From Methanobacteriota archaeon (GTDB taxonomy: Archaea > JAADCQ01 > Methanopyri > Methanopyrales > Methanopyraceae), in contig JAMOPY010000009.1 of the NCBI GenBank assembly GCA_027064305.1, positions 1 through 41,653 of the forward strand: a stretch of DNA of 41,653 bases. The letters run 5' to 3'. The notes under the pieces are model-generated. The model saw only the letters and a list, made by a program, of their open reading frames with translations, was not told where the DNA came from and searched no databases. Made by a program: the position numbers and the translations under genes. Positions 8,925 to 32,117 of this stretch are shown here, one piece after another (positions within the stretch are counted from its first letter, which is position 1; each line of letters begins with the position of its first letter).

Positions 8925-10088
8925 TTGTTCGGCAAGATGAAGAAGCTGCTGGGCAGCGTGAAGGAGAGGGTCACGAAGCGCGTGGAGCGGCGGGCCGAGG
9001 AGGAGTCCCCGAGCCCGGGAAAAGTTAAGGAGACTGAAACGATTGAAGCAGGGGAAAAGACCGAGCCGGAGGAGGGGAAGGGGAAGAAGGACGAGGAGAG
9101 TGTTAAGGAGGAGAGGAAAGAGAGGATGGAGAGCGCTGAGGGAGAGGAGGGGAAGGAGACCGAGGGGAAGAGGCTGAAGAAACCGTCACTGAAGGAGAGG
9201 CTGAAGCGGGTGATCAAACGTGAGGTCACGATCACGGAGAAGGACGTGAAGGATATCCTGGAGGAGTTTGAGCTGAACCTGATAAGCAACGACGTGGCGG
9301 TGGAGGTGGCGGAGAGTATCAGGAAGGAGCTGGAGCGGGAGCTGATCGGCAGAAAGGTCAAGGGCAAGTCGGAGGTCCAGAAGGTGGTGGAGCGGAGCCT
9401 CCAGCGGGCCCTGCTCTCCGTGCTCGAGCCGGAGCGGGAGGTGGACCTGTTCGAGGTCATCGAGGAGGCCCGGGAGGAGGGCCGACCCGCCGTCATCATG
9501 TTCGTGGGCGTGAACGGGAGCGGTAAGACCACGACCATCGCCAAGGTGGCCAAGCTGCTCAAGGATCGCGGGTACTCCGTGGTCATCGCCGCGGCGGACA
9601 CGTTCCGGGCCGCCGCGATCGAGCAGCTGGAGGAGCACGCCGAGCGGCTCGGGGTCACGCTGATCAAGGGGGAGAAGGGCGACGACCCGGCGGCGGTCGC
9701 GTTCAACGCGGTCCAGCACGCGGAGGCGAAGGGCAAGGACGTCGTGCTGGTGGACACGGCCGGCCGGGCCTACACGGACGTGAACCTGATGGAGGAGCTC
9801 CGCAAGATGAAGCGCGTGCTCGAGCCGGACCTGGTGATCTTCGTGGGGGACGCGCTCGCGGGCAACGACGCCGTGGAGCAGGCCCGGACGTTCGACGAGT
9901 ACGTGGGGATCGATGGGGCCATCCTGACCAAGGTGGACGCGGATGCGAAGGGCGGGGCGGTCCTGTCCATCACGAAGGTGACCGGTGCCCCCATCCTGTA
10001 TCTGGGCGTCGGTCAGGGCTACGATGACTTGAAGGAGTTTCAACCGGAGTGGTTCGTCGAGCGCGTCGTGGGGGCTGAGTCGTCGTGA
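8925..10088 (+). CDS. ftsY: SRP receptor FtsY
   Basis: Charged N-terminus, then GVNGSGKTTTIAK, DTFRAAA, DTAGR, TKVDADAKGG and GVGQ. Confidence 0.97.
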   Translation: MFGKMKKLLGSVKERVTKRVERRAEEESPSPGKVKETETIEAGEKTEPEEGKGKKDEESVKEERKERMESAEGEEGKETEGKRLKKPSLKERLKRVIKREVTITEKDVKDILEEFELNLISNDVAVEVAESIRKELERELIGRKVKGKSEVQKVVERSLQRALLSVLEPEREVDLFEVIEEAREEGRPAVIMFVGVNGSGKTTTIAKVAKLLKDRGYSVVIAAADTFRAAAIEQLEEHAERLGVTLIKGEKGDDPAAVAFNAVQHAEAKGKDVVLVDTAGRAYTDVNLMEELRKMKRVLEPDLVIFVGDALAGNDAVEQARTFDEYVGIDGAILTKVDADAKGGAVLSITKVTGAPILYLGVGQGYDDLKEFQPEWFVERVVGAESS

Positions 10089-11431
10089 TCGGAGGGTTGG
10101 GCGACCGTCTCTCCGCGCTCGTGGACAAGATCAAAGGCGCCCCGGTCATCGACGAGCGGCTCGTGAAGGAGGTCGTGCGGGACGTCCAGCGCGCGCTGCT
10201 CGAGGCGGACGTGGACGTGAAGCTCGTGATGGACCTCAGCAAGCGGATCGAGCGGCGGGCGCTGGAGGAGGAGCCGCCCGCCGGCGTGCCCAAGCGCGAC
10301 TACCTGCTGAGGATCGTGTACGAGGAGCTGGTTGACCTGCTGGGCGGTGAGGAGACGGAGGGGCTGGACGTCGATCCCTCCCGGGACGTCAACGTCATCA
10401 TGCTGGTCGGACTCTACGGCATGGGTAAGACCACCACGGCGGCCAAGCTGGCCCGGTACCTGCAGCGGAAGGGGTACAAGGTCGGGCTCGTCTGCGCGGA
10501 CCCGTACCGGCCCGCGGCGGACGAGCAGCTGCGGCAGCTGGCGGAGGAGATAGGCGCCCCCGTGCACACGGAGGACACCGACGACGCGGTGAAGATGGCC
10601 GAGCGGGGCGTGGAGGAGCTTAAGGACGAGTGCGACGTGATCATCATCGACACGGCGGGCCGGGACCGGCTGAGCGAGGACCTGATCGAGGAGCTCAAGG
10701 AGATCGCGGAACGGGTGGAGCCGCACGAGGTGCTGCTGGTGCTGGACGCCACGGTGGGCCAGAAGGCGGGCGACCACGCGGAGGCGTTCCACGAGGCGGT
10801 CCCGCTGACGGGCGTGATCCTGACCAAGCTCGACACGGCGGCGAAGGGCGGCGGTGCCCTCTCGGCCGTGGCCCGAACCGGCGCCCCGATCAAGTTCGTC
10901 GGCACGGGCGAGCGGCTGGACGACCTGGAGGAGTTCAACCCGAAGAGCTTCGTGGCCCGCCTGCTGGGCATCGGCGACATCGACGAGCTGCTGCGCCGCA
11001 CGGAGGAGATGATGGAGGAGGAAGAGAAGGAAGAGGACGTCCTGGAGGGCGAGTTCACGCTGAAGGACCTGTACGAGCAGCTGGAGGCGCTGAGCAAGAT
11101 GGGACCCGTGGACAAGCTGCTGCAGTTCGTTCCGGGGATGGGGGCGGGACGGCGAGCGCGCGAGCTGTCCAGGATCACGGAGGAGCGGTTGAAGAAGTAC
11201 AAAGTCATCATGGACTCCATGACCGAGAAGGAGCTGGAGAACCCGGAGATCATCAACAAATCCAGGATCCGGAGGATAGCCATCGGGTCCGGCACGTCTG
11301 AAAAGGACGTCGTAGAACTCTTAAACCACTACAGGATGATGAAGGAAGTCCTTGAAGACATACAAAGCGGCCGAATCCCGAGGATCGGAGGGGAACTCGG
11401 GAGGGTCATAAGAAACGTGCTAAGGGGGTAG
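10085..11431 (+). CDS. srp54: Signal recognition particle protein SRP54
   Basis: ALLEADV, GKTTT, DPYRPAA, DTAGR and TKLD, plus the M domain IMDSMT...SRIRRIAIGSG. Confidence 0.97.
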   Translation: MIGGLGDRLSALVDKIKGAPVIDERLVKEVVRDVQRALLEADVDVKLVMDLSKRIERRALEEEPPAGVPKRDYLLRIVYEELVDLLGGEETEGLDVDPSRDVNVIMLVGLYGMGKTTTAAKLARYLQRKGYKVGLVCADPYRPAADEQLRQLAEEIGAPVHTEDTDDAVKMAERGVEELKDECDVIIIDTAGRDRLSEDLIEELKEIAERVEPHEVLLVLDATVGQKAGDHAEAFHEAVPLTGVILTKLDTAAKGGGALSAVARTGAPIKFVGTGERLDDLEEFNPKSFVARLLGIGDIDELLRRTEEMMEEEEKEEDVLEGEFTLKDLYEQLEALSKMGPVDKLLQFVPGMGAGRRARELSRITEERLKKYKVIMDSMTEKELENPEIINKSRIRRIAIGSGTSEKDVVELLNHYRMMKEVLEDIQSGRIPRIGGELGRVIRNVLRG

Positions 11432-11440
11432 ATTAGGATT

Positions 11441-11881
11441 ATGGTGAAGAAGATCTCGGAGCTCTTCGTGATCGGCCTGCAGGAGGCGCTCTTCGAGACG
11501 CACGGCAAGATGGCGCTGGCCCTGAACCGGATCGCCGGCCGCGCCATGCTCGACTACCTGAAGGATCATGACATGCTGGAGGCCTCGGGGCACTCGACGG
11601 AGTCGCTGGCCCACGACATCCAGGAAATCATCGACACGCTGGACTCGGTCGAGAACGTGGAGGCCGAGGAGGAGGGCAACGAGATTCGAGTGAGGATCAT
11701 CGGATGCCCGTTCTCCGAGGCCAAGCAGGCGCTGCTGAGGCGCGACAAGATGCCGGTGGTCTGCCCGTTCGCCTCCTGCATACTGAAAATCACGGAGGAG
11801 ACGTTCGAGCAGCGGATGCGGATGAAGGAGATCAACGTGGACGAGGACCAGTGCGAGTTCGTGATGGAGAAGCTCGAGTAA
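11441..11881 (+). CDS. Stand-alone V4R / methanogen-output-domain-like small ligand-binding protein
   Basis: 146 aa with IRVRIIGCPF, VVCPF and terminal QCEFVM, the Cys pattern of the V4R-like fold. Confidence 0.6.
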   Translation: MVKKISELFVIGLQEALFETHGKMALALNRIAGRAMLDYLKDHDMLEASGHSTESLAHDIQEIIDTLDSVENVEAEEEGNEIRVRIIGCPFSEAKQALLRRDKMPVVCPFASCILKITEETFEQRMRMKEINVDEDQCEFVMEKLE

Positions 11882-12037
11882 CTGTGCCCCGCCCGACGGG
11901 ACCGGGGCGTCATCGTCGGGCGCCAGCCCGCCTCCGCCCGGTCGGGCCAGCGGGGCTCATCGCCCGTGTGCCCCGACCGTTGAACGGTGGCTCATCGGCG
12001 GCTCCGGCCACCTCCCCACCGCCTGCCGCGCCGGGGC
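11880..12037 (-). ncRNA. Two-hairpin box H/ACA(-like) guide sRNA
   Basis: Two GC-rich hairpins on the minus strand, each closed by a GCCCCG/CGGGGC basal stem followed by ACA (11969-11967, 11885-11883). Each has an apical GA...GAUGA K-loop or K-turn, and the upper stem sits 15-16 nt from ACA. Confidence 0.8.
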
Positions 12038-12079
12038 GGGCCCGCGCTCGGGCTCTCAGGAGCGTGACGGGGTGATGGT

Positions 12080-12937
12080 TTGCGTGGGACGGGTCGCGCC
12101 TACGCCGCCGGCACGGTCGTCAACGCCATTTCCGCCAAGAAGGGCTGCGCCTTCGCGCTGGATTTGAAGGTTACCGTCCGCGCCCGGGAGGCCGAGGAGG
12201 ACGCCGTTCGGACGGACGTGGAGGACACGTCGCTGGTCGAACGCTGCGTGGACGTGGTCCGCGAGCACGTCGACGCGGAGGACGCGCGCTTCCGGATCGA
12301 AATCGAGTCGGAGATCCCGGTGGCCGTGGGCCTGGCCAGCAGCAGCGCGGTCTCCAACGCCGTGGTCGAGGCCCTGCTTCGAGCCTTGGGGAGGGAGCCC
12401 GAGCCGCTGGAGGTCGTCCGCCTGGGGGTCGAGGCCAGCCTCCGGGCCGGGGTGACGGCGACGGGCGCGTACGACGACGCCTGCGCCTCCTTCCTGGGTG
12501 GGATCGTGCTCACGCTGAACGATGAGCGTAGGATCGTCGACGTGCGCGAGCCACCGTACGATCACGCGGTGGTCCTCCTCCCCGGCGGTCGCGTGGAGAC
12601 CCGGGAGGTGGACGTGGAGCGGTTGGAGCGCGTCGCCCCGGTGGCGGAGGCCGCCTTCGAGCGCGCGCTCGTCGGGGATTACCGTTCAGCCATGCTGATC
12701 AACTCGTCCGCGTACTGTCCGTTGCTCGGGCACGACCTGGACCCGGTGCTCGACGCGCTGGAGGCGGGCGCGTCGGCGGCCGGTCTCTCCGGCACGGGCC
12801 CGGCCTACGTGGCCCTGTGCGAGACGAGGTCCGACGCCGAGGCCGTGGAGGAGGCGTGGGAGGACGTCGGCAAAACGCTCCGGACGCGGGTCGTTGGTCT
12901 TGAGCGCGTTGGAGGGGCTCAGGCGCAAGATCGATGA
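12080..12937 (+). CDS. aroK: Archaeal shikimate kinase (GHMP family)
   Basis: GTVVNAI, IPVAVGLASSSA, TGAYDDA and AAGLSGTGP. Confidence 0.95.
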   Translation: MRGTGRAYAAGTVVNAISAKKGCAFALDLKVTVRAREAEEDAVRTDVEDTSLVERCVDVVREHVDAEDARFRIEIESEIPVAVGLASSSAVSNAVVEALLRALGREPEPLEVVRLGVEASLRAGVTATGAYDDACASFLGGIVLTLNDERRIVDVREPPYDHAVVLLPGGRVETREVDVERLERVAPVAEAAFERALVGDYRSAMLINSSAYCPLLGHDLDPVLDALEAGASAAGLSGTGPAYVALCETRSDAEAVEEAWEDVGKTLRTRVVGLERVGGAQAQDR

Positions 12938-30314: not shown

Positions 30315-32117
30315 TCACGTGCCGTAGAACGGGTCCTCTCGGCGCTTGATCTCCGCGATCTCCTCCAGCACCTCCCGCTCGTCCTCGGTGAGCAGGTCCC
30401 AGAACTCCTCGAACATCAGCCTGGCGTGCTCCGACGGCACGTCCGTGTAGAGGATGTCGCCCTCCTCGAAGTGGCGGCCCACGATCGGTCCCTCGATCGA
30501 GATGGCCACCTCCTCGCCCCGCTTGGCCTCCTCCTGCGGCTCCCCGTGCGACTGGATCTGCTTGATCCGGCCCAGCTCCCGACCGTCCTCGCGCATGAGC
30601 GGGTAGCCGGGCTTGATGACGCCGCCGAGGACGCGGACGCCCACGATCGCCGGCTTGCTCTGGCGGAAGATGTAGCCGGGCAGGACCTTGACCTTGCCCG
30701 GGCGGACGAGCTCGTCCAGGCGGCGACGGCGCTCCCGCTCGATCCGCTTCTCCACCATCTCCTCGTACTTCTCCACCAGCTCGTAGATCACGTCGTCGAT
30801 GATGATGTCCACGTCGTACTCCTCCGCCAGCTCCTCCGCCTCCTCGGTGATGCCCACGTTGAACCCCACGATCACGCCCAGGCGCGGATCCTTCTCGGCG
30901 ACCGCGTGCGCCTCGATCACGTCCTCCTTCGTGATGTCACCCACGTCGGCGCGCCGGATGGGGACCTCCTTCTCCTTGAACTCGCCCACCACGGCCTCCA
31001 GCGTGCCGAGCGTGTCCGCCTTGATGATGATCCCGTCCTTGTCCGTCTCGATCGTGACCTCTTCCACCTCCTGCTGCACCTCCTTCACGACCTCCTCCAC
31101 GTCCTCGTCCTCCCCCACGACCCGCAGCGGGGTCCCGGCGATCGCCCGGTCCAGCTCCGGCGCGCTGATCTTCACGCCGGCCGCGGCGCTCACCTCATCC
31201 ACCTTCCGGAACCGGTCGCTCGGGTCGCGCATCTCGTCCATCGGCTTGGGCTTCAGCAGCGAGCGGACGCGGGTGACGATCGGCTCCTCTGGGTGGCCGA
31301 TGACGATCCGGTCGCCCGTCCGGATGATCCCGTCGTAGAGAATCGCGTCCACCGTGTGGCCCAGGCCCGGCTCCTTCTTGACCTCCAGGATCGCGGCCTT
31401 CCCGGGACCGCTCACCTCGATCCTGAGCTGCTCCTCCAGGAACCGCTGGGCGAGCCCCGTCACGACCATGAGCAGCTCGGGGATGCCCTCCCCGGTGATC
31501 CCGCTCGTGGGGACGATGGCGACCGTGCGCGTGAAGTCCCGCACCCGGTCGAAGCGTTCCGCCTGGAACCCGTGCTGGTGCAGCTGGCCGATGAGCTCGT
31601 AGATCTTCTCCTCCACCCGCTTCTGCACCTCCGGGGACTGCTTCTGGAACGACTCCAGGAAGGGAGAGTCCTCGTGCGGCTGCCAGCCGGGGACCCGGTC
31701 CACCTTGTTCGCCGCGACCACGAACGGCGTCTTGTAGCGGCGGAGGATCCGCAGGGCCTCCTCGGTCTGGGGCATGACGCCTTCCATGATGTCGATGACC
31801 AGGATCGCGATGTCCGCGAGGGCGCCCCCGCGGCGGCGGAGGTTGGTGAAGGCCTCGTGACCGGGCGTGTCGATGAACAGGAGACCCGGGATCGTGAGCT
31901 CCACGTCGAGCTGCTCGAGCAGGGGCCCGCAAATCTCCTTTATCACGTCCAGCGGGATCTCCGACGCGCCGATGTGCTGCGTGATGCCGCCCGCCTCCTT
32001 GGCGGCCACGGCGGTCCCCCGGATCTTGTCCAGGAGGGTCGTCTTACCGTGATCCACGTGCCCCAGCACCGATATGATGGGTTGCCGGATCACCTTCTCA
32101 CCCTCGCTCAACTTCAA
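30315..32117 (-). CDS. infB: Translation initiation factor aIF5B (IF-2)
   Basis: RQPIISVLGHVDHGKT, EAGGITQHIGA, IDTPGHEAF, NKVD and KADTLGTLEA. Confidence 0.97.
   Translation of the reverse strand: MKLSEGEKVIRQPIISVLGHVDHGKTTLLDKIRGTAVAAKEAGGITQHIGASEIPLDVIKEICGPLLEQLDVELTIPGLLFIDTPGHEAFTNLRRRGGALADIAILVIDIMEGVMPQTEEALRILRRYKTPFVVAANKVDRVPGWQPHEDSPFLESFQKQSPEVQKRVEEKIYELIGQLHQHGFQAERFDRVRDFTRTVAIVPTSGITGEGIPELLMVVTGLAQRFLEEQLRIEVSGPGKAAILEVKKEPGLGHTVDAILYDGIIRTGDRIVIGHPEEPIVTRVRSLLKPKPMDEMRDPSDRFRKVDEVSAAAGVKISAPELDRAIAGTPLRVVGEDEDVEEVVKEVQQEVEEVTIETDKDGIIIKADTLGTLEAVVGEFKEKEVPIRRADVGDITKEDVIEAHAVAEKDPRLGVIVGFNVGITEEAEELAEEYDVDIIIDDVIYELVEKYEEMVEKRIERERRRRLDELVRPGKVKVLPGYIFRQSKPAIVGVRVLGGVIKPGYPLMREDGRELGRIKQIQSHGEPQEEAKRGEEVAISIEGPIVGRHFEEGDILYTDVPSEHARLMFEEFWDLLTEDEREVLEEIAEIKRREDPFYGT

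Follow-up and report, generated by a model that had tools for sequence, protein, structure and literature searches.

The window, the whole 41,653-nucleotide stretch of DNA that was analysed, contains a gap of 198 nucleotides between an ORF of 146 amino acids and a shikimate kinase gene, both on the plus strand. The G+C content of this spacer is approximately 79%. It lies in a G+C-rich genome with hyperthermophile-like proteins and tRNA genes carrying C at position 8. All of the motif strings given in an earlier note for a two-hairpin H/ACA RNA are located on the minus strand between positions 12037 and 11883, with the correction that hairpin 2 reads GA-GG-CGGGC and not GA-G-CGGGC. The claimed antisense position relative to both flanking genes holds, and the 3’-most ACA box ends (11883) 2 nucleotides from the stop codon of the 146-amino-acid ORF. 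As also claimed, the 100 nucleotides upstream of the RNA contain no A/T-rich box when inspected by eye, and no TATA-like box was seen by eye upstream in any of the six genomes of the genus. The parts of the RNA are as follows.

12038 to 12056, minus strand: conserved 5’ leader, AGAGCCCGAGCGCGGGCCC, nearly invariant in 6 of 6 genomes
11970 to 12037, minus strand: H/ACA hairpin 1, from alignment, covariation, and RNAalifold
12037-12032 with 11975-11970, minus strand: hairpin 1 lower stem P1
12031-12023, minus strand: hairpin 1 5’ guide, GCGCGGCAG
12022-12016 with 11990-11984, minus strand: hairpin 1 upper stem
12015-12013 (G-G-A) opposite 11996-11991 (GAU-GA-G), minus strand: hairpin 1 K-turn
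12012-12007 with 12002-11997, minus strand: hairpin 1 apical stem
11983-11976, minus strand: hairpin 1 3’ guide, UCAACGGU
11969-11967, minus strand: ACA box of hairpin 1, the same in all six genomes
11957 to 11966, minus strand: linker CGGGC-GAU-GA, proposed bulged strand of a third K-turn, pairing with the leader
11886 to 11956, minus strand: H/ACA hairpin 2, from alignment and covariation
11956-11950 with 11892-11886, minus strand: hairpin 2 lower stem P1
11949-11944, minus strand: hairpin 2 5’ guide, UGGCCC
11943-11935 with 11909-11900, minus strand: hairpin 2 upper stem, 9 base pairs and one bulged C
11934-11933 (GA) opposite 11914-11910 (GAU-GA), minus strand: hairpin 2 K-turn
11932-11926 with 11921-11915, minus strand: hairpin 2 apical stem
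11899-11893, minus strand: hairpin 2 3’ guide, CCGUCGG
11885-11883, minus strand: ACA box of hairpin 2, the same in all six genomes
11861 to 11882, minus strand: probable 3’ tail, running antisense to the final codons of the 146-amino-acid ORF, its extent taken from a relative

Hairpin 1 was originally described as ending in a K-loop closed by GGUGGC/GCCACC. This fold was ruled out, as only 83% of its cells (one pair in one sequence) can pair and it shows no compensatory changes. In the supported alternative, the pairings are GCGGUGG–CCACCGU and GGUGGC–GCCGCC, which result in a K-turn with a 6-base-pair apical stem and a 5’ pocket strand of normal size (8–9 nucleotides). The 19-nucleotide pocket strand noted previously is an artefact of the earlier fold. 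The upper stem is composed of six Watson–Crick pairs and one or two G.U pairs, and the ACA box is separated from the pocket top by 14 nucleotides, or by 15 when the lowest G.U pair does not form. In hairpin 2 this distance is 14 nucleotides, and 13 in genome G004.

A search at the DNA level found the element in 6 of 41 genomes, which are all six genomes of one genus. The window’s own genome (G000) and the relative G002 share 87% identity over the element. A search with model R1 across 150 genomes again returned every one of the six, with E-values at the locus between 1e-22 and 1e-32. Outside the genus it gave no comparable score, and no homologue was detected with this model among the 144 other archaeal genomes. 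Three of 36 metagenome stretches matching a pattern are real copies. Having scores identical to those of G003 and G004, they add no diversity.

The two ACA boxes and every GA dinucleotide of the K-turns are unchanged across the six genomes; the earlier note had held that their loss in relatives would speak against the RNA. In an alignment of six sequences from this one genus, fitted to the model, 97.2% of the cells in the 42-pair structure can pair, compared with 38–48% in slid controls, and 8 of the 42 pairs have changed on both sides, a number reached by none of 500 shuffles. RNAalifold recovers the same helices from an alignment that was not fitted. The helices of hairpin 1 (1–3) are paired in 97–100% of cells and those of hairpin 2 (4–6) in 89–98%. 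The lower and upper stems (helices 1, 2, 4, and 5) reach 98–100%, with compensatory changes in both upper stems. That of hairpin 1 varies between U-A, C-G, and U.G, and its apical stem contains three compensatory pairs. Hairpin 2 has three compensatory pairs in the upper stem, all from G004, and one in the apical stem. Each hairpin carries the K-turn sequence motif beneath a covarying apical stem, and the 3b.3n position of the K-turn varies between G.G, G.U, U-A, and U.U. Several pairs on the minus strand are G.U, for example columns 37–77 in 6 of 6 sequences. These would be A.C on the plus strand, which supports the minus strand as the RNA strand.

The pockets of hairpin 2 in G004 differ from those in the other five genomes. 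The self-pairing of this pocket pointed out in the earlier note is present in those five and absent from G004.

Folding energy by itself is weak evidence here. The single sequence folds marginally better than its shuffles (z = −1.98), 7 of 200 of which fold as well, and in its minimum-energy fold hairpin 2 does not take the H/ACA shape, since there are two copies of GCCCGAC. The Rfam search that had been proposed (Rfam 15, gathering scores) returned no families in the window, including HgcE, HgcF, HgcG, and the Pyrobaculum sRNAs. The best match below threshold, with E-values allowed up to 10, is to the Pyrobaculum H/ACA model PyrR209, which scores 14.4 bits where the threshold is 42.

Evidence for transcription comes from the relative G002. 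Its orthologous locus (L004), flanked by the ORF that neighbours SRP54 and by the shikimate kinase gene, is present in four of four small-RNA runs, with a summed depth of up to approximately 38,000 over hairpin 1; these values are from contigs of the relative rather than the window’s organism, and strand is indicated only by A-tails. The A-tails at L004 positions 1599 and 1911–1916 mark 3’ ends of the sense strand. Some parts of the locus have no cover in some of the runs. In one of the four runs a circular unitig of 203 nucleotides is present. Its junction joins position 1718, which is 22 nucleotides past the second ACA box, to position 1516, which is 6 nucleotides before the leader AGAG. A BHB-type splice motif at this junction was considered and rejected, as the two ends lie together at one end of a short terminal helix, an arrangement that does not resemble a bulge-helix-bulge. 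The data from the relative suggest that a longer transcript is processed to release the RNA and that at least some of the molecules are circularised.

The leader and the linker may interact. RNAalifold pairs leader positions 12053-12049 with linker positions 11966-11962. All five pairs can form in all six sequences, and one pair changes from G-C to A-U in G004, a compensatory change matched by 79 of 500 shuffles. The leader and linker may form a third K-turn, a weak hypothesis in which A12056-G12055-A12054 would be the non-bulged strand and GCCCG (12053-12049) the C-stem strand. The GGGC-GAUGA-GCCC motif noted earlier in the linker is conserved in the genus. Local hairpins within the leader (GCCCG/CGGGC) and within the linker (GGGC/GCCC) were each rejected, since both are broken in G004, whereas the leader–linker pairing survives there.

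A C/D box guide directed at the leader was also sought. A 17-nucleotide pattern search gave no more matches than its reversed control, and none of the 15 candidates from a strict C-box to D-box scan is complementary to the leader. A loose scan returned one C/D-like site with a 10-nucleotide match (contig C33), against a chance expectation roughly estimated, not computed, at 0.3. This site has no clear C’ or D boxes and was not retained.

H/ACA guide RNAs direct an enzyme that converts chosen rRNA uridines into pseudouridine. In archaea, the K-turn is the L7Ae binding site and the ACA box is the anchor for the PUA domain of Cbf5. Genes for the partner proteins are present in the window’s own genome: Cbf5 (481 bits), Nop10 (84.5 bits), and Gar1 (30.9 bits) all score above curated cut-offs. 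Taken together with the conservation, the covariation, the strand-specific G.U pairs, and the expression in the relative, this bears out the earlier identification of an L7Ae/Cbf5-type RNA with two hairpins. We assign a probability of about 0.8 to the identification of the locus, on the minus strand of the gap, as an archaeal H/ACA guide sRNA gene of the double-hairpin type. L7Ae, Nop10, Cbf5, and Gar1 would assemble on each hairpin. The pocket strands would then pair with a target RNA so as to flank an unpaired U-N, the U of which would be isomerised by Cbf5.

The earlier note regarded the RNA as a possible orphan guide. This appears to apply to hairpin 2 and not to hairpin 1, whose corrected pocket matches the 5’ end of 16S rRNA. 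The target string proposed previously for hairpin 1 (GUUGAAC-UN-UCCCCAC) is half wrong because the 5’ pocket strand it was derived from was the fold artefact described above. The best rRNA match of the corrected pocket is at U12 of the 16S rRNA (position 1 being the start of the Rfam SSU match), in the strand that forms the central pseudoknot. In the predicted duplex, the 3’ guide would bind GUUGA of the 16S rRNA and the 5’ guide would bind CUGCCG(GA), leaving U12-C13 unpaired. The match has 5+8 contiguous pairs in G001, G002, and G004, and 5+6 in G000. Pocket shuffles reach 13 pairs in 3 of 1000 cases and 11 pairs in 25 of 1000, the latter uncorrected for the three or four registers tried, and the match in the window’s own genome is weak. 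The 3’ guide and its 16S target are both invariant. No match to 23S rRNA was found for either pocket.

The published rule requires an upper stem of 5–6 base pairs and 14–15 nucleotides from the ANA box to the target, and an upper stem of 7 base pairs is linked with inactive interactions in Pyrococcus, according to the cited portion of PMC2377435. Hairpin 1 lies within or at the border of this rule, with six Watson–Crick pairs plus G.U and a spacing of 14–15 nucleotides; the U12 register requires a 7-base-pair upper stem, G.U pair included. From the pocket complementarity, we judge the odds to be about even that the 5’ end of 16S rRNA around U12 is the substrate of hairpin 1.

Hairpin 2, with an upper stem of 9 base pairs and an ACA spacing of 14 nucleotides (13 in G004), falls outside the 5–6 base pair range. 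Searches of the 16S and 23S rRNAs of four genomes in four to six registers gave no conserved match for its pocket, and no rRNA match of 4+4 pairs or better. No target was found in 26 tRNAs, 5S rRNA, SRP RNA, or RNase P RNA. The best matches genome-wide lie in coding regions, resemble chance, and were set aside. Hairpin 2 is probably either an orphan guide for some other RNA or a structural or assembly module.

Three other explanations of the locus were weighed. The spacer could hold chance hairpins, or a DNA-level terminator or promoter serving the plus-strand genes. Stems form easily in G+C-rich sequence, and the modest folding z-score and the lack of an Rfam match would fit such an element. 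It would not account for eight compensatory pairs, for pairs that take the G.U form on the minus strand alone, for the high small-RNA depth in the relative, or for model E-values at the locus that nothing outside the genus approaches, and we give this explanation almost no credence. The RNA could instead act mainly as a cis-antisense control of its plus-strand neighbours, at the 3’ end of the 146-amino-acid ORF and the 5’ end of the shikimate kinase gene. In the relative, the A-tailed ends at L004 1911–1916 represent transcripts running approximately 215 nucleotides into the 146-amino-acid ORF in antisense, and short RNAs overlap the kinase start. Conservation and covariation are nevertheless concentrated in the intergenic hairpins and not in these overlaps, the abundant RNA species is the hairpin region, and an antisense role needs neither ACA boxes nor K-turns. 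A mainly antisense function is accordingly very unlikely, if slightly less so than a chance or DNA-level element.

The strongest of the three is a structured RNA that binds L7Ae and resembles an H/ACA RNA, yet directs no pseudouridylation, serving as a scaffold, a chaperone for assembly of the 16S 5’ end, or a regulator that titrates L7Ae. Three conserved K-turn-like motifs would suit this role, as would the 7-base-pair borderline register of hairpin 1 and a hairpin 2 whose upper stem is too long for the rule and for which no target was found. Against it, the ACA boxes are invariant at 13–15 nucleotides from the pockets, a spacing that matters only for Cbf5, and the conserved pocket of hairpin 1 matches a stretch of rRNA that carries pseudouridine in two further archaeal lineages. 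We consider such a non-guide RNA improbable and retain the H/ACA guide RNA as the preferred reading.

The several parts of the guide RNA can be joined into one model, which taken as a whole is doubtful. The model describes a particle of approximately 200 nucleotides, partly circularised, with three L7Ae sites, in which hairpin 1 acts at U12 and hairpin 2 is an assembly module or a guide for a non-rRNA target. The leader (A-GA-GCCCG) and linker (CGGGC-GAU-GA) would form a long-range K-turn that clamps the base of hairpin 1. Hairpin 1 would either pseudouridylate U12 or hold that strand during assembly of the small subunit. U12 would be distinct from the uridines modified in Pyrococcus (U15) and Sulfolobus (U8).

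Six H/ACA box sRNAs were identified in Methanopyrus kandleri by small-RNA sequencing, and the section of that paper drawn on here mentions a ‘5’ leader region’ of one of them (Su, Tripp and Randau 2013, PMC3695527). The present RNA shares with these the kind of organism, judging by the proteins and tRNA genes noted above, the RNA class, and detection in poly-A-tailed small-RNA libraries, and it too has a conserved leader. The genome is a different one, and, going by that section, the locus could be one of the published six. Novelty is therefore limited, since H/ACA sRNAs have already been reported for such an organism (PMC3695527).

The Pyrococcus RNA Pab105/Pf3 (HgcE, RF00060) is likewise a two-motif H/ACA sRNA with K-turns and ANA boxes. 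Motif 2 of this RNA directs a verified pseudouridine within the first 15–27 nucleotides of 16S rRNA, at or near the central pseudoknot. The pocket fits U15 in the Rfam SSU match numbering, 3 nucleotides downstream of the predicted U12, and motif 2 also serves 23S sites in Pyrococcus. Pab105/Pf3 has no sequence or model similarity to the present RNA, and RF00060 matches 7 of 150 genomes, all of another family, and none of the six in this genus.

In Sulfolobus islandicus, sR109 guides 16S-U8, as determined by gene deletion and in vitro assay in the part of the report cited (PMC11077068). Like the predicted activity of hairpin 1, it acts near the 5’ end of 16S rRNA, and U8 is possibly the same nucleotide as U12. 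By that account sR109 is an atypical single hairpin without a lower stem or ACA box, whereas the present RNA has the classic two-hairpin form. A circular form of sR109 was detected in S. solfataricus (PMC3326292), a feature it has in common with the relative’s orthologue of the present RNA. The Haloferax volcanii RNA sR-h45 has the same double stem-loop H/ACA architecture and, as described in the relevant portion of PMC7075261, guides three 23S rRNA sites, in contrast to the pockets here.

What the locus adds is a well-supported H/ACA sRNA gene, overlooked by annotation with Rfam, in a lineage for which few guide RNAs have been described. The circular form and the possible third K-turn are relevant, on thin evidence, to how guide RNPs stay folded at temperatures close to 100 degrees C. 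If the U12 target is true, guided pseudouridine would occur within the first 15 nucleotides of 16S rRNA, in the central-pseudoknot strand, in three archaeal lineages. In the numbering used here for U12 and U15, and with Sulfolobus U8 taken as published, the uridines would differ between lineages, and the guide RNAs compared show no sequence similarity. Different uridines served by dissimilar guides would then suggest that selection acts on the segment and not on any one uridine within it.

The element, a probable two-hairpin H/ACA guide sRNA, lies on the minus strand of the window (approximately 12037-11883) and is preceded by a 5' leader (12056-12038). The window DNA is archaeal and G+C-rich. 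The element occupies the 198-nucleotide gap between a 146-aa ORF and shikimate kinase, both encoded on the plus strand.

10085-11431, plus strand, SRP54
11441-11881, plus strand, 146-aa ORF with several cysteines, starting 9 nucleotides past SRP54
12080-12937, plus strand, shikimate kinase, archaeal type (TIGR01920, 267 bits)

No Pfam or NCBIfam family was matched by the 146-aa ORF. A relative of this ORF with 92% protein identity adjoins the sRNA in a metagenome-assembled genome, and the element alignment suggests that the ORF lies beside the sRNA in the remaining genomes of the genus as well.

A DNA search of 41 genomes located the element in every one of the six that belong to the window's genus and in no others, with identities of 77-100%. 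Both ACA boxes (11969-11967 and 11885-11883) and the GA of both K-turns, on whose conservation in relatives the earlier note had staked its reading, are invariant or nearly so in the six-genome alignment. The same is true of the hairpin 1 3' pocket strand, the leader, and the linker. A 42-pair structure was written and used to build a covariance model (R1), to which the six sequences were realigned. In this structure-fitted alignment of six related sequences, 97.2% of cells are paired and eight pairs are changed on both sides, with all changes in the hairpin 2 upper stem coming from a single genome (G004). None of 500 shuffles matched any of the five measures, and pairing fell to 38-48% when the partners were slid by 1-3 columns. 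RNAalifold predicts the same helices from the unfitted alignment, which counters the caveat of having fitted the alignment to the structure. The strand is settled as minus by several pairs that are G.U there and would be A.C if read from the plus strand.

The R1 model matched six of 150 genomes, all within the genus and none beyond it. A pattern scan of metagenomes returned 36 stretches, of which three are true homologues; these score the same as G003 and G004 of the genus and therefore add no new diversity. The Rfam search proposed in the earlier note, run over the whole window, returned no family at gathering scores, and the sole match at E values up to 10 was a Pyrobaculum H/ACA family (14 bits). 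The folding energy of the single element sequence has a z of −1.98, with 7 of 200 shuffles equally good. Given this weak match and marginal z, the single sequence is suggestive, but not compelling, as an H/ACA RNA.

Hairpin 1 (12037-11970) had been drawn as a K-loop hairpin with a 19-nucleotide pocket strand. This was not borne out, and the supported fold is a K-turn. The upper stem of the earlier drawing, GGUGGC/GCCACC, was rejected, with 83% of cells paired and no covariation. The supported stems are as follows.

12022-12016 with 11990-11984, minus strand, hairpin 1 upper stem (GCGGUGG with CCACCGU), with U-A / C-G / U.G replacement
12012-12007 with 12002-11997, minus strand, hairpin 1 apical stem (GGUGGC with GCCGCC), with three compensatory pairs

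Between these stems, G-GA on the 5' strand lies opposite GAU-GA-G on the 3' strand, which is, as judged from the sequence, the layout of a standard K-turn. Its 3b.3n position is variable (G.G, G.U, U-A, or U.U). The pocket strands are GCGCGGCAG and UCAACGGU, and the ACA box is 14 nucleotides from the pocket, or 15 with the bottom G.U pair opened. In active Pyrococcus motifs the upper stem measures 5-6 bp, the ANA box stands at 14-15 nucleotides, and the 3' guide counts more than the 5' guide (PMC2377435, partial text). Hairpin 1 conforms to this geometry, or nearly so.

The window's genome assembly (1.21 Mb, 50 contigs, 89% complete) contains 16S, 5S, SRP RNA, and RNase P RNA genes, together with 26 tRNA genes identified by ARAGORN. 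All three tRNAs inspected have C at position 8, a hallmark of Methanopyrus (PMC3695527, partial text). Genes for Cbf5 (481 bits), Nop10 (84.5 bits), and Gar1 (30.9 bits) are present, all above curated cut-offs. No 23S gene was found in the assembly, and the 23S was taken from G005, a genome of the genus whose element is 98% identical to that of the window.

Four genomes each were scanned for 16S and 23S rRNA sites using several pocket registers. The outstanding site for hairpin 1 in every genome is the 5' end of 16S rRNA, where GUUGA is complementary to the 3' guide and CUGCCG(GA) to the 5' guide, with U12-C13 left unpaired between them. We take U12 to be the equivalent of U17 in E. coli, the nucleotide with which the 17-19/916-918 pseudoknot helix begins. 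The match comprises 5+8 contiguous pairs in three genomes (G001, G002, G004) and 5+6 in the window's genome; the second-best rRNA site scores clearly lower. Of 1000 shuffles of the pocket strands, 3 reached 13 pairs and 25 reached 11. When three to four registers are allowed for, the predicted match is significant for a G002-type guide and no more than suggestive for the guide encoded in the window. The U12 register counts a G.U as the seventh pair of the upper stem, and this was counted against the assignment since 7-bp upper stems are linked to inactive interactions in Pyrococcus (PMC2377435, partial text). A different RNA, Pab105/Pf3 (Rfam HgcE), acts on the same 16S segment. Its motif 2 guides a pseudouridine that has been verified at 16S position 27 in P. 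abyssi numbering (15 in that of P. furiosus), and its pocket fits U15, three nucleotides downstream of U12. HgcE was matched in 7 genomes out of 150, which belong to a single family other than that of the window. In Sulfolobus islandicus, sR109 is reported to guide 16S-U8, in the numbering of that work (PMC11077068).

For hairpin 2 (11956-11886), the six-genome alignment and covariation show the earlier drawing to be essentially right. Every string quoted for the element was found on the minus strand between 12037 and 11883, the one slip being a G that the earlier note dropped in hairpin 2. The upper stem is composed of 9 bp and one bulged C (9 bp, unbulged, in G004), which breaks the 5-6 bp rule of Pyrococcus, and the ACA box is 14 nucleotides from the pocket (13 in G004). 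In the minimum-energy fold, hairpin 2 takes no H/ACA shape, because it contains GCCCGAC twice.

11941-11947, minus strand, GCCCGAC copy in the hairpin 2 5' pocket and upper stem
11915-11921, minus strand, GCCCGAC copy in the 3' strand of the hairpin 2 apical stem

The GUCGGGC of the 3' pocket is able to pair with either copy; G004 is without the repeat. Both pocket strands of G004 differ from those of the other five genomes, so the pocket self-pairing described earlier is not conserved and a common target cannot be written. The 16S and 23S scan gave no site for hairpin 2 with at least 4+4 pairs, and no target was found in the 26 tRNAs, 5S, SRP RNA, or RNase P RNA. The best genome-wide matches to this pocket are inside protein-coding genes. 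The view of the RNA as a possible orphan thus stands for hairpin 2 and probably gives way for hairpin 1, with its predicted match to the 16S 5' end.

Almost no variation is seen in the leader sequence A-GA-GCCCG (12056-12049) or the linker sequence CGGGC-GAU-GA-G (11966-11956). In the RNAalifold prediction, GCCCG and CGGGC pair and enclose hairpin 1, with a 3-nucleotide bulge and two G.A oppositions at the exact places of a K-turn; the closing G-C pair is replaced by A-U in G004. The extra linker motif GGGC-GAUGA-GCCC of the earlier note is conserved as sequence. The two alternative local hairpins, GCCCG/CGGGC in the leader and GGGC/GCCC in the linker, are each broken in G004 and were rejected. 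The leader-linker covariation is a single event reached by 79 of 500 shuffles, so this proposed third K-turn is rated as a lead only. Its non-canonical side would abut the hairpin 2 lower stem directly.

Expression was read from the orthologous stretch of the relative G002 (L004, sense strand plus), which is 87% identical to the window. This stretch is present in four size-fractionated small-RNA runs (X1-X4) of organism A from one 2013 study, and contigs cover the element in all four. Summed depth peaks at approximately 38,000 over hairpin 1 in X4. In X3 most of the element is covered at a depth of 350-450, as is its 3' two-thirds in X1. A-runs follow L004 positions 1503-1507, 1599, and 1911-1916; assuming A-tailed libraries, these are 3' ends of plus-strand (sRNA-sense) RNAs. 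Poly-A tail removal is described for such libraries (PMC3695527, partial text). In X3, a 233-nucleotide unitig with ends overlapping by 30 nucleotides joins 1718 to 1516, giving a putative 203-nucleotide circle that starts 6 nucleotides ahead of the leader AGAG and ends 22 nucleotides past the second ACA. The junction was seen in one of the four runs, as a contig. Circular C/D box sRNAs are reported in M. kandleri (PMC3695527, partial text), and a circular form of the H/ACA RNA sR109 is reported in S. solfataricus (PMC3326292).

Contigs extending to L004 1911-1912 stop at a T-rich tract, pointing to a longer primary transcript that extends, in antisense, into the 146-aa ORF. A T-run is lacking at the corresponding position of the window, where the first TTTT is approximately 95 nucleotides past the ACA. 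No sRNA promoter was found. Depth climbs to 600-1200 in X1 and X2 at L004:1872-1916, inside the antisense of the 146-aa ORF; the site would be a terminator for the primary sRNA transcript or else a small RNA in its own right. Short A-tailed RNAs from both strands lie over the shikimate kinase start (L004:1476-1507 and L004:1451-1503), with ends at 1503-1507 on the plus strand and 1451-1456 on the minus strand. These could represent a leader excised from the sRNA and short fragments from the 5' end of the kinase mRNA.

At other loci, weaker R1 matches indicate H/ACA-like hairpins in G000 (the window's own genome), G001, G003, and G004, out of the six genomes in the genus. In the window's genome, a further H/ACA-like hairpin carrying an ACA box lies at C23:81004-81127, minus strand (L045:1501-1624; R1 E of approximately 1e-3). 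Just upstream of it is a small K-loop-like hairpin with the loop UGA...GAUGA, and a G004 locus (L044) has the same arrangement. Another H/ACA-like RNA, found in G001 (L042) and G003 (L043), has clear upstream TATA-like boxes and a GAUGA immediately ahead of the lower stem of its last hairpin. A C/D-like site in the window's genome (C33, approximately 30405-30450, plus strand) contains CUGAUGA, a 16-nucleotide spacer, and CUGA; no C' or D box was seen at this site. Within the spacer, 10 nucleotides are perfectly complementary to window 12067-12058, which lies just ahead of the conserved leader, and by a rough estimate approximately 0.3 such sites are expected by chance. The site is of note only because a C/D guide is reported to target the leader of an H/ACA sRNA (PMC3695527, partial text).

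In architecture and probable mechanism, the element is a classic euryarchaeal multi-hairpin H/ACA sRNA, and it is assignable to no Rfam family. The small-RNA study of M. kandleri lists six H/ACA box sRNAs, with details in its supplement (PMC3695527, partial text). Considering the depth at the orthologous locus, we judge it likely, at roughly four in five, that this RNA is among those six. The contributions made here are modest and consist of a corrected fold, the 16S U12 prediction, the unusual geometry of hairpin 2, the circular form, and a possible third K-turn.
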